DNA of 64,000 nucleotides from Candidatus Helarchaeota archaeon (lineage in GTDB: Archaea; Asgardarchaeota; Lokiarchaeia; Helarchaeales; RDOG01): positions 64,001-128,000 of the forward strand of contig JAHPZH010000009.1 of the NCBI GenBank assembly GCA_019058315.1, in the 5' to 3' direction. The translations under genes and the position numbers were made by a program. The notes under the pieces are model-generated. The model was not told the origin of the DNA. It was given only the letters and a program-made list of their open reading frames with translations, and made no database searches. How positions within the stretch are numbered: the stretch's first letter is position 1; every line of letters begins with the position of its first letter. This document shows, one piece after another, positions 34,509 through 37,321 of the stretch.

Positions 34509-34610
34509 GCTGGGATAGCCAAGTGGTACGGCGCAGGCCTGGAGCTTCCTTTTAAAAGAAAGCCTGTGATTCTTTGAATCGCGAGGGTTCAAATCCCTCT
34601 CCCAGCGCCA
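34509..34610 (+). tRNA. tRNA-Ser(GGA) with encoded CCA and a 16-nt intron at about position 37/38 (34545-34560)
   Basis: Acceptor GCTGGGA/TCCCAGC + G + CCA; D arm GCC..GGC; anticodon stem CAGGC/GCCTG with CT-GGA-G; variable arm GATTC/GAATC; T arm GAGGG-TTCAAAT-CCCTC. Confidence 0.93.
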
Positions 34611-34684
34611 TTGTTATATATAATAAATTTACTTTTAAATAAGAAGATATAAATAAAAAACTATTAATTTAAAGCGTGTTATTT

Positions 34685-34798
34685 TTAACCTACTAGTTCT
34701 ATTTCTATAAAAACATCCTCTGGGACTCTTATCCTCATTATCTGTCTCATTGTCCTCTCATCGGCATCGATATCTATTAAACGTTTATGTAGACGCAT
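34685..34798 (-). repeat. Tandem copy of the last 37 codons plus stop of rps10; intact mini-ORF with identical peptide
   Basis: Direct repeat of 34810-34923 at 125-bp offset; 14 mismatches in 114 nt, all synonymous. Confidence 0.95.
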
Positions 34799-34809
34799 TT
34801 CCGATAATT

Positions 34810-35121
34810 TTAACCAACCAGTTCTATTTCTATAAAAACATCCTCTGGAACTCTAATCCGCATAATTTGCCTCATTGTCCTTTCGTCAGCATCAATGTCT
34901 ATTAAGCGTTTATGTAGACGCATCTCCCAGTGCTCCCACGTGGGGGTTCCCTCACCGCAGGGCGATTTTCTTACGGGAATGATTAATCTACGAGTTGGCA
35001 AAGGTACAGGACCCGCCATTTTAACTCCAGTTCGTGTTACAATCTCGGTTACTTGACTACACATCTCAAGCAATTTTGTAGAACTTGTTGAACTGAGACG
35101 TATTCGTGCTCTTTGTACCAT
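34810..35121 (-). CDS. rps10: 30S ribosomal protein uS10
   Basis: [25 protein letters not shown]. Confidence 0.98.
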
Positions 35122-35188: not shown

Positions 35189-36508
35189 CTATTTCTTTTT
35201 CTCTTTCACTTTCTTTTTAAGGTCCATTACGACGCCCACAGCTATCGTTCTTCCCATATCACGGACTGCAAAGCGTCCAAGTTGTGGGAAATCGCTGAAT
35301 TTCTCAATGCACATTGGTTTCTTCGGTTTAAATTTAACCATGCCACCTTCATTCATTTTCAAGAAATCAGGTTTTTCTTGAAGTACTTGACCTGTTCGTG
35401 GATCTGTCTTTGTCATAATCTCTTCAAAAACACATGCAACTTGTGCAGTGTGAGCATGTACTACTGGTGCGTATCCTTGAGGAAGCACGGTCGGATGATA
35501 GATAACTACAATTTGACCTGTAAATTCGTCGGCTACAGTAGGCGGGGTTTTATTTGCATGTCCTAAAACCATACCTCTTCGTAAATCTTTAACTGGTATA
35601 CCTCGAATGTTAAAGCCAATATTGTCTCCTGGGATGGCTTGTTTGATTTGTTCATGATGCATCTCTATCGAACGAACTTCTGTGGTTATTTCTGGTGGCA
35701 TTATTATTATTTTGTCTGCGATTTTTAATACTCCTGTTTCAACTCTTCCTACGGGAACAGTACCTACTCCACTAATTTTGTAAACATCTTGAATAGGTAT
35801 TCTAAGGTCTTTATCAGTAGGTTTTGGTGGAACTTTTAAATTATCTAATGCATCTACAAGAGTAGGTCCTTTATACCATGGCATTTTATCGCTTTTTTTA
35901 GCTAAATTATCACCAGTCCAAGCACTCGTTGGAATAAATTCAACATCTTCTTTCTTGAACCTAATTTCTTCAAAAAGTAACCTCGAAATCTCGTTTTTGA
36001 CTTCATTAAATCGGTCTTCTTTCCAATCGACTGTAGCATCGTCCATTTTATTAACTGCTACTCTTACTTGTCCTACTCCTAAAGTTCGAGCTAAATATGC
36101 ATGTTCTATTGTTTGACCACCAGCTGAAATCCCTGCTTCGAATTCACCTTTTTTAGCGCTTACTACCAGAATTGCTGCATCAGCTTGAGAACTTCCAGTA
36201 ATCATGTTCTTAACAAAATCCCTGTGTCCAGGTGCGTCTATTAGAGTAAAATAATAGTTCTTAGTTTCAAATTTTCGGAACGCAAGATCGATGGTAATTC
36301 CACGTTCGCGTTCCTCCTTTAACCTATCAAATACAAAAGCATATTTCCATGAGGCTCTTTCTAGTTTTTTTGATTCATCTTCCAATTGACGCATTTCTCT
36401 GTCTGTAATTGCACCTGTCAGGATTAACAAGTGACCCATCATAGTGGATTTTCCGTGGTCGATATGACCTATTATGACCAGATTCATGTGCGTTTTTTTC
36501 TCGCTCAT
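35189..36508 (-). CDS. tuf: Translation elongation factor EF-1alpha
   Basis: GHIDHGKST, ERERGITID, DAPGHRDF, NKMD, LGRFAVRDM. Confidence 0.99.
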   Translation of the reverse strand: MSEKKTHMNLVIIGHIDHGKSTMMGHLLILTGAITDREMRQLEDESKKLERASWKYAFVFDRLKEERERGITIDLAFRKFETKNYYFTLIDAPGHRDFVKNMITGSSQADAAILVVSAKKGEFEAGISAGGQTIEHAYLARTLGVGQVRVAVNKMDDATVDWKEDRFNEVKNEISRLLFEEIRFKKEDVEFIPTSAWTGDNLAKKSDKMPWYKGPTLVDALDNLKVPPKPTDKDLRIPIQDVYKISGVGTVPVGRVETGVLKIADKIIIMPPEITTEVRSIEMHHEQIKQAIPGDNIGFNIRGIPVKDLRRGMVLGHANKTPPTVADEFTGQIVVIYHPTVLPQGYAPVVHAHTAQVACVFEEIMTKTDPRTGQVLQEKPDFLKMNEGGMVKFKPKKPMCIEKFSDFPQLGRFAVRDMGRTIAVGVVMDLKKKVKEKKK

Positions 36509-36709: not shown

Positions 36710-37321
36710 TTATCGGGCAGATTGAGCTAATCTTTCGCGTTCTTCTTTCCTTTTTATTGCATGACTTTTAGTATCTCCGTTTGCGGTAAGTATTAGTTCT
36801 TCAGCAATAATTTCTTCTATTGTCAAGGGATTATTGAAACTTTTTCTGAAGCAACTTTCAACAAGATATTTCAATGCAAGATCTACTCTCCTCTGTGGAG
36901 CTATATCTACTGCTTGTTGATAAACTATTCCTCCATAACTTAGCCGCGTTGTTTCTTCACGCGGTGCTGCGTTTTCAATTGCTCTGACTAAGATTTCTAA
37001 TGGATTTCGAGATGTTCGAAGATGCATAATTTCAAATGAACTTTTAATGATGTTAATTGTCTTAATTTTCTTTCCTGAAAGTGAAGCGGGTTGTCTGCCA
37101 CCAATTTTTCTCTTGGAGAGTCCAGGGGTCATTAATCGATTGACAAACCGTTCTACGATATTAAGGTTAGATTTTCTAAATTTCTTATGTTCATGGCGAC
37201 CATGGCTATGACAAGTAAGTGTAGGTTTTAAATTAATATATCTTTCTAAACTTATATCTTTGATTTTTACGTCTTTAACATCCCATTTATCAAAGAATTT
37301 TATATCTTCCATTTTGTACAC
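36710..37321 (-). CDS. rps7: 30S ribosomal protein uS7
   Basis: IVERFVN, AIENAAPREE, AVDIAPQRRVD, ERERLAQSAR. Confidence 0.97.
   Translation of the reverse strand: MYKMEDIKFFDKWDVKDVKIKDISLERYINLKPTLTCHSHGRHEHKKFRKSNLNIVERFVNRLMTPGLSKRKIGGRQPASLSGKKIKTINIIKSSFEIMHLRTSRNPLEILVRAIENAAPREETTRLSYGGIVYQQAVDIAPQRRVDLALKYLVESCFRKSFNNPLTIEEIIAEELILTANGDTKSHAIKRKEERERLAQSAR

Follow-up and report, generated by a model that had tools for sequence, protein, structure and literature searches.

The question raised by this locus is why rps10, an essential gene encoding a ribosomal protein, should be followed directly by a second copy of its own 3′ end, in which the nucleotides have diverged and the encoded peptide has not. 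The window in which the gene lies, i.e. the whole stretch of 64,000 nucleotides that was analysed, comes from an Asgard (Helarchaeales) archaeon represented by a metagenome bin of 5.79 Mb in 12 contigs with 30% G+C, the completeness of which is estimated at 94% and its contamination at 6.6%. The answer that we favour, with a rough probability of 0.55, is that the distal copy would be the resident 3′ end of rps10, displaced when an allele of the gene from a related lineage was recombined in. The duplicate is most likely a genuine recombination scar, ordinary in kind though neatly resolved, rather than a mobile element or a new gene.

The intact rps10 gene (34810–35121, minus strand, in the ORF list) encodes a uS10 protein of 103 aa and stands at the end of a string formed with rps7 (36710–37321, minus strand) and the EF-1alpha gene (35189–36508, minus strand). 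An identical gene call on a Logan contig, described below, has a Pfam Ribosomal_S10 match, and uS10 orthologs are 71–95% identical to the window protein. The string is convergent with a tRNA gene on the plus strand (34509–34610; Rfam tRNA, 52 bits), which has a long variable arm and, in its anticodon loop, an intron of ~16–19 nt; ARAGORN reported 0 tRNA genes in the whole window and missed this one. We read its anticodon as GGA (Ser), which would make it a tRNA-Ser(GGA). Past the tRNA gene lie a methyltransferase gene, cbf5 and genes labelled L14e (92 aa, with a weak KOW match), cmk and L34e. The flanks of rps10 thus consist of core genes in conserved order, and the same tRNA gene is found downstream of rps10 in relatives, where it forms a conserved downstream context.

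The spacer between the convergent genes includes, on the minus strand, a 34-nt block (34634–34667) containing the first oligo-T run after rps10 (34655–34660). This block is identical in the window and in L186 and L188, the closest relatives for the breakpoint scan discussed below (~90% and ~87% nucleotide identity, respectively), though the flanking genes have diverged by ~25% at silent sites, and it is probably a two-way terminator common to the rps10 and tRNA-Ser genes. The oligo-T run is the likely transcription stop of rps10. In relatives such a run lies close behind the single rps10 stop codon, and in the window the sole oligo-T terminator is downstream of the second copy of the gene end; with transcription likely to stop only after that copy, the copy would lie in the rps10 3′ UTR.

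The rps10 3′ flank is also a spot of rearrangement in Helarchaeales. In L115, L117, L036, L037 and L038, rps10 by itself is flipped with respect to the EF-1alpha gene, so that it points the same way as the tRNA and methyltransferase genes. A deacetylase-like gene lies between rps10 and the tRNA gene in L039/L116, and in G001, a genome of the same family, a radical-SAM gene and the genes of the ribosomal stalk (P1/P0) come after rps10, and an L1-like gene then runs off the end of the locus. Within the tRNA-Ser gene itself, an additional ~30–50 nt separate the D arm from the anticodon stem in L188, L189 and L190. This insertion varies in sequence between samples and has the look of a second intron that close relatives have gained or lost.

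Turning to the duplication itself, the rps10 stop codon is followed, 11 nt on, by an ATG-to-TAA ORF of 37 codons (34685–34798, minus strand) that encodes the last 37 residues of uS10 exactly. The existence of such a second copy, with its own start and stop and an identical peptide, was the central claim of a preliminary description of this DNA, and it is borne out by both the ORF list and a repeat search; the ORF was also called by the Logan gene caller, with a weak Pfam S10 match. The repeat search aligned 34680–34802 with 34805–34927 (123 nt, 87% identical, spacing 125), and read in register these become two abutting units of 125 nt, 34803–34927 and 34678–34802, with 0 nt between them. Each unit comprises the last bases of codon 65, codon 66, codons 67–103, the stop and a 7-nt trailer. 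Unit 1 (copy 1; 34803–34927, minus strand) has GAG as codon 66 and the trailer AATTATC, and is the 3′ end that rps10 translation uses. Unit 2 (copy 2; 34678–34802, minus strand) begins with GGAA, continues with the same 37 codons and stop, ends in the trailer AAATAAC and is continuous with the native downstream spacer. The 11-bp gap first described is correct as the distance from the rps10 stop to the ATG, but it is no true spacer, being made up of 7 nt of unit 1 trailer and 4 nt of unit 2 start. The units meet at TTATC/GGAA (34802–34803, minus strand), the putative illegitimate joint, and with a period of 125 (3n+2) the ORF in unit 2 is out of the rps10 frame.

Copy 1 and copy 2 differ at 14 of 111 coding nt, every difference being synonymous (13 at third positions and one CGG/AGG), and the Glu-66 codon preceding them is GAG in unit 1 and GAA in unit 2, as had been described. 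A random single-base change in this stretch would be synonymous in only 21% of cases, which gives a result of 14 out of 14 a P of 3e-10, and neutral drift over the same time would be expected to produce ~26 replacement changes, against the 0 observed. The 5.8-Mb genome contains 2041 ungapped repeat pairs that differ at 8 or more sites, and in third-position bias the rps10 pair ranks joint second among them. The substitutions are of mixed types, GC3 is equal in both copies (0.30) and the longest run identical between them is 29 nt.

A genome-wide scan for silent-only repeat pairs returned only repeat-protein paralogs and one pair of contig ends; silent-only pairs are not a general phenomenon in this genome. 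The contig ends in question (C7:275122–275544 and C9:208446–208868) form an inverted overlap and are 91.5% identical; within a reading frame that is rich in repeats and resembles a surface protein, they show 31 silent differences against 4 replacements. Besides the rps10 copies, they are the sole long silent-biased pair in the genome. A compositional feature also lies within rps10, where codons 52–66 (34924–34968) have a GC3 of 0.80, against 0.2–0.3 around them, and include the palindrome CCCACGTGGG. This stretch was considered as a foreign patch and dropped: relatives are GC3-rich at the same codons (L187 0.87, L188 0.60), and the richness thus belongs to the segment and does not signal the event.

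How, then, could the divergence have come to be entirely silent? It had been proposed that both copies diverged under purifying selection, and this stands to the extent that both would have been coding for uS10 meanwhile, but selection on the distal copy in its present place is not required. The identical 37-residue peptide is encoded in L186, L188, L191, L193, L194/L195 and L196 by DNA that differs at 7–25 of 111 nt, and since the peptide is invariant despite these differences, silent-only divergence is normal between two working uS10 alleles. When polarised against relatives, each copy carries ~7 private synonymous changes, none of which are shared. The branch of the window lineage since the split from L186/L188 is ~7%, corresponding to ~8 changes in 111 nt, and each copy therefore carries a whole branch's worth of change; a duplication in place would accordingly have to date to the base of the branch. 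At third positions the copies are 0.35 apart, which is further than the window and L188 are in twelve flanking genes (0.20–0.26) and as far as the window is from L034, a more distant relative (0.37–0.43). A nucleotide tree of both copies, as suggested in the preliminary description, was built on the 111 nt but is not decisive, as the sister grouping of the two copies is unrejected (AU test, p 0.13), which leaves room for an in-place duplication.

Signs of an imported patch are found in the intact gene. The maximum chi-squared method places a breakpoint inside rps10, at 35014–35037 (codons 29–36), with a permutation p of 0.006, or 0.007 with adjacent sites collapsed, for three lineages only; the putative homologous crossover would lie at 35014–35047 (about codons 25–36, minus strand). 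At this breakpoint the affinity of the window switches from L186-like to L188-like. Among derived sites, rooted with outgroups, the window shares 15 with L186 versus 2 with L188 upstream of the breakpoint, and 0 with L186 versus 4 with L188 from there through the whole of unit 1, a contrast with a Fisher value of 0.0025 for a boundary chosen post hoc from overlapping data. The switch in ancestry could also reflect an older exchange in L186 or L188, and not in the window. For copy 2, polarisation against the outgroups leaves too few sites.

The two copies also end differently. The trailer of copy 1, AATTATC, is of the L188 type, the heptamer being identical, and that of copy 2, AAATAAC, is of the L186/L191 type; the spacer of copy 2 matches L186 at 8 of 9 informative sites, and over unit 2 and its spacer together the identity with the corresponding gene end and flank in L186 is 95.5%. 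The third-position distance to L188 is equal on both sides of the junction, which means that no large foreign block is detectable and fits a small patch, and by the same token this measure gives no independent sign of foreign DNA. Among 20 close-relative loci there is no near-identical donor, the closest being L186 (9 and 7 of 111 nt off), and with L188 and L186 as proxies for donor and recipient no microhomology is seen at the joint. Several origins had been offered for the second copy in the preliminary description, and a foreign allele acquired by recombination is the one that best fits the in-gene breakpoint, the two trailer types and the invariant peptide.

On the reading that we favour, the donor would have been a diverged rps10 allele of a related Helarchaeales lineage, and the imported patch would measure ~210–245 nt, from about codon 29–36 to 7 nt past the stop. 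The left end of the patch would have entered by homologous recombination inside rps10, and its right end by illegitimate joining to the resident gene at codons 65/66, making this a one-sided, homology-facilitated illegitimate event, alias ‘C-terminal displacement’. The imported end (unit 1) would now be translated by the cell, and the old end (unit 2), keeping its native trailer, terminator block and tRNA-Ser neighbour, would persist as an untranslated relic in the 3′ UTR. The silent differences would have arisen earlier, when each copy was a working uS10 end in its own lineage. With a start, a stop and no replacement change, the proposed relic is fully intact, so that the event must be recent, presumably recent enough for decay not to have set in. 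That the copies come from two lineages, which of the two is foreign and how they were joined are what we infer from the patterns in the DNA.

The arrangement is confined to this genome among all those searched. No second copy was found in 181 other archaeal rps10 loci with flanks, in 20 loci of the closest relatives (uS10 88–95% identical), which have a single copy and the same gene order where flanks are available, or in 400 Asgard species genomes (352 with a match). The idea that related Asgard genomes might hold the same duplication, or an element responsible for it, thus found no counterpart in the 181 and 20 loci or the 400 genomes. Within the genome itself there is neither a further copy of the rps10 end nor an att-like repeat elsewhere, and the junction sequence is single. 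In G035, a genome of the same class, there are two full-length rps10 genes, on contigs C116 and C143, which are probably due to bin contamination or strain mixing.

An alternative, which we consider unlikely, is that the tandem duplication is old and arose in place, and that the distal copy has since been selected as a separate protein of 37 residues, re-initiated after the rps10 stop. Its ORF is unbroken between an ATG and a TAA of its own, and the ~7 private changes of copy 2 are all synonymous; it lies inside the probable rps10 transcript, with the first oligo-T run beyond it, and with the ATG 11 nt past the rps10 stop re-initiation is conceivable. The unrejected clade of copy 1 and copy 2 (AU p 0.13) is compatible with this history too. 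Stand-alone ORFs of 36–37 residues that start at the same Met, P0123 and P0124, lend it some further support, although they may be truncated gene calls. P0123 (36 aa, JGI) is on a 16-kb contig and P0124 (37 aa, Logan), which is markedly diverged, on a 3.3-kb contig, each from another metagenome.

Such a gene is, however, absent from the 181 archaeal loci, the 20 close-relative loci and the 400 Asgard genomes, and the free peptide would have to be constrained as tightly as a ribosomal protein. With no shared derived changes, the duplication would have to fall at the base of the lineage, the chance of which we estimate at ~0.13 if timing is uniform. There is no GGTGA-like motif in the 30 nt before the ATG, whereas rps10 itself has AGTGATA, the ORF and rps10 are in different frames, and each trailer corresponds to a different lineage. 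The peptide corresponds to the C-terminal strand-helix-strand of uS10. Bacterial uS10 (NusE) contacts NusB and NusG. A uS10 fragment kept for the lifetime of the lineage as a re-initiated gene, maybe as a decoy or modulator of a partner of the C-terminal surface, is a doubtful proposition.

The same breakpoint and allele evidence that suggests displacement would apply equally to a history in two steps, in which the gene end was recently duplicated in tandem at its own locus and the proximal copy alone was then replaced by a foreign allele through homologous recombination. This would make the illegitimate joining of foreign DNA unnecessary, but it needs two rare events, and its right crossover must fall within unit 1, yet the L188-type trailer reaches the last base of that unit. 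An L188-type trailer up to the end of unit 1 is what would be expected if the foreign DNA stops at the joint, as displacement in a single event proposes, and we regard the two-step history as rather improbable.

Could the structure be an artefact, created by chimeric molecules or by an assembly that merged two related populations occurring side by side? The genome was binned from a metagenome, with the 6.6% estimated contamination given above, and related lineages are present in other public assemblies, e.g. L186 from run SRR14699980, an accession numerically close to that of the window's run. A 52.8-kb Logan contig from run SRR14802573 is nevertheless 100% identical to the window over the 6.5 kb compared and carries the junction, running without a break through rps10, the joint, copy 2 and the spacer. 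It ends inside the tRNA gene because a 32-nt stretch there recurs in two other tRNA-Ser genes, the only other places in the genome where the 3′ half of this tRNA-Ser is found. The longest run common to the two copies (29 nt) is below the Logan k of 31, and the joint offers no shared sequence for a jump in the graph, which therefore could not have invented it. In addition, the bin shows no large-scale doubling at 85–95% identity. The assembly chimera of two strains raised in the preliminary description is thus unlikely, given an independent contig across the junction, with the qualification that all the evidence is from one sample and the assembly and the Logan contig may derive from the same reads. 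We see very little chance that the structure is artefactual.

Even less probable is that the locus is the scar of a lost element which integrated into the 3′ end of rps10 and, like e14 at icd, supplied the gene with a new end. In form, the synonymously recoded duplicate of a gene end does resemble icd/icdC around e14 of Escherichia coli K-12 (PMC13626634). Here, 0 bases separate the units, and after normal excision just one copy would remain. Tyrosine recombinase genes (PF00589) number only two in the genome, on contigs C5 and C7, with no integrase on this contig, there is no insertion at the rps10 3′ site in the relatives examined, and a degenerate uS10-motif pattern had 0 matches in 2.9 million IMG/VR viral contigs. 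The integrating element offered as one possible origin in the preliminary description has thus left no trace on this contig, in the other genomes searched or in these viral contigs. Finally, a diversity-generating retroelement was rejected on substitutions that are of mixed type, all silent and not adenine-specific and on neighbours (rps7, EF-1alpha, tRNA, methyltransferase, Cbf5) with no reverse transcriptase among them, and read-through or frameshifting into copy 2 on units that are out of frame (period 125) and would merely repeat the same peptide.

If the displacement of a resident gene end by a related allele is the correct reading, this locus would record, at single-base resolution and in a form that can be dated, an exchange of DNA between distinct Helarchaeales lineages, inside an essential and highly conserved translation gene of hosts that are not yet genetically tractable. 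It would suggest that these archaea exchange DNA by homologous recombination combined with illegitimate joining, and that such exchange does not spare ‘informational’ genes. For annotation and for selection scans it carries the caution that a silent-only orphan fragment does not prove function. Alone, it is one scar and raises no new question.

Considering how this locus compares with known systems, the icd and icdC copies of E. coli K-12, between which prophage e14 (and likewise phage 21) lies (Hill et al. 1989, described in PMC13626634), are alike in that the 3′ end of a gene is present twice and that the copy in use and the displaced copy differ mostly silently. They are unlike in that they are 15 kb apart and bracket an integrase-bearing element, whereas the rps10 copies abut and are element-free.

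The closest known kind is C-terminal displacement by homology-facilitated illegitimate recombination. Orphaned 3′ regions produced by C-terminal displacement are known from rhs and cdiA loci and from the T6SS effector arrays of Vibrio cholerae (PMC5361080), and homology-facilitated illegitimate recombination was demonstrated by experiment in bacteria, first in Acinetobacter, Streptococcus and Pseudomonas, and in E. coli conjugation (PMC3240628). In the rhs, cdi and T6SS cases, as would be the case for rps10, the incoming allele is anchored by homology in a conserved 5′ part and illegitimately joined at its other end, and the resident 3′ end is pushed downstream to become an untranslated relic right behind the new stop. 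Consistent with this, the rps10 locus has a partial 3′ copy directly downstream in the same orientation, and its copies are diverged alleles with differences like those between working orthologs; the donor lineage by which such a case would also be recognised was not among the 20 close-relative loci. The displaced ends of rhs, cdi and T6SS loci encode different toxin tips with their immunity genes, and diversity is the point, whereas at rps10 no microhomology is visible at the joint with relatives as proxies, the host is an Asgard archaeon, the gene is an essential ribosomal one, the patch would be only ~220 nt and both ends encode the same peptide.
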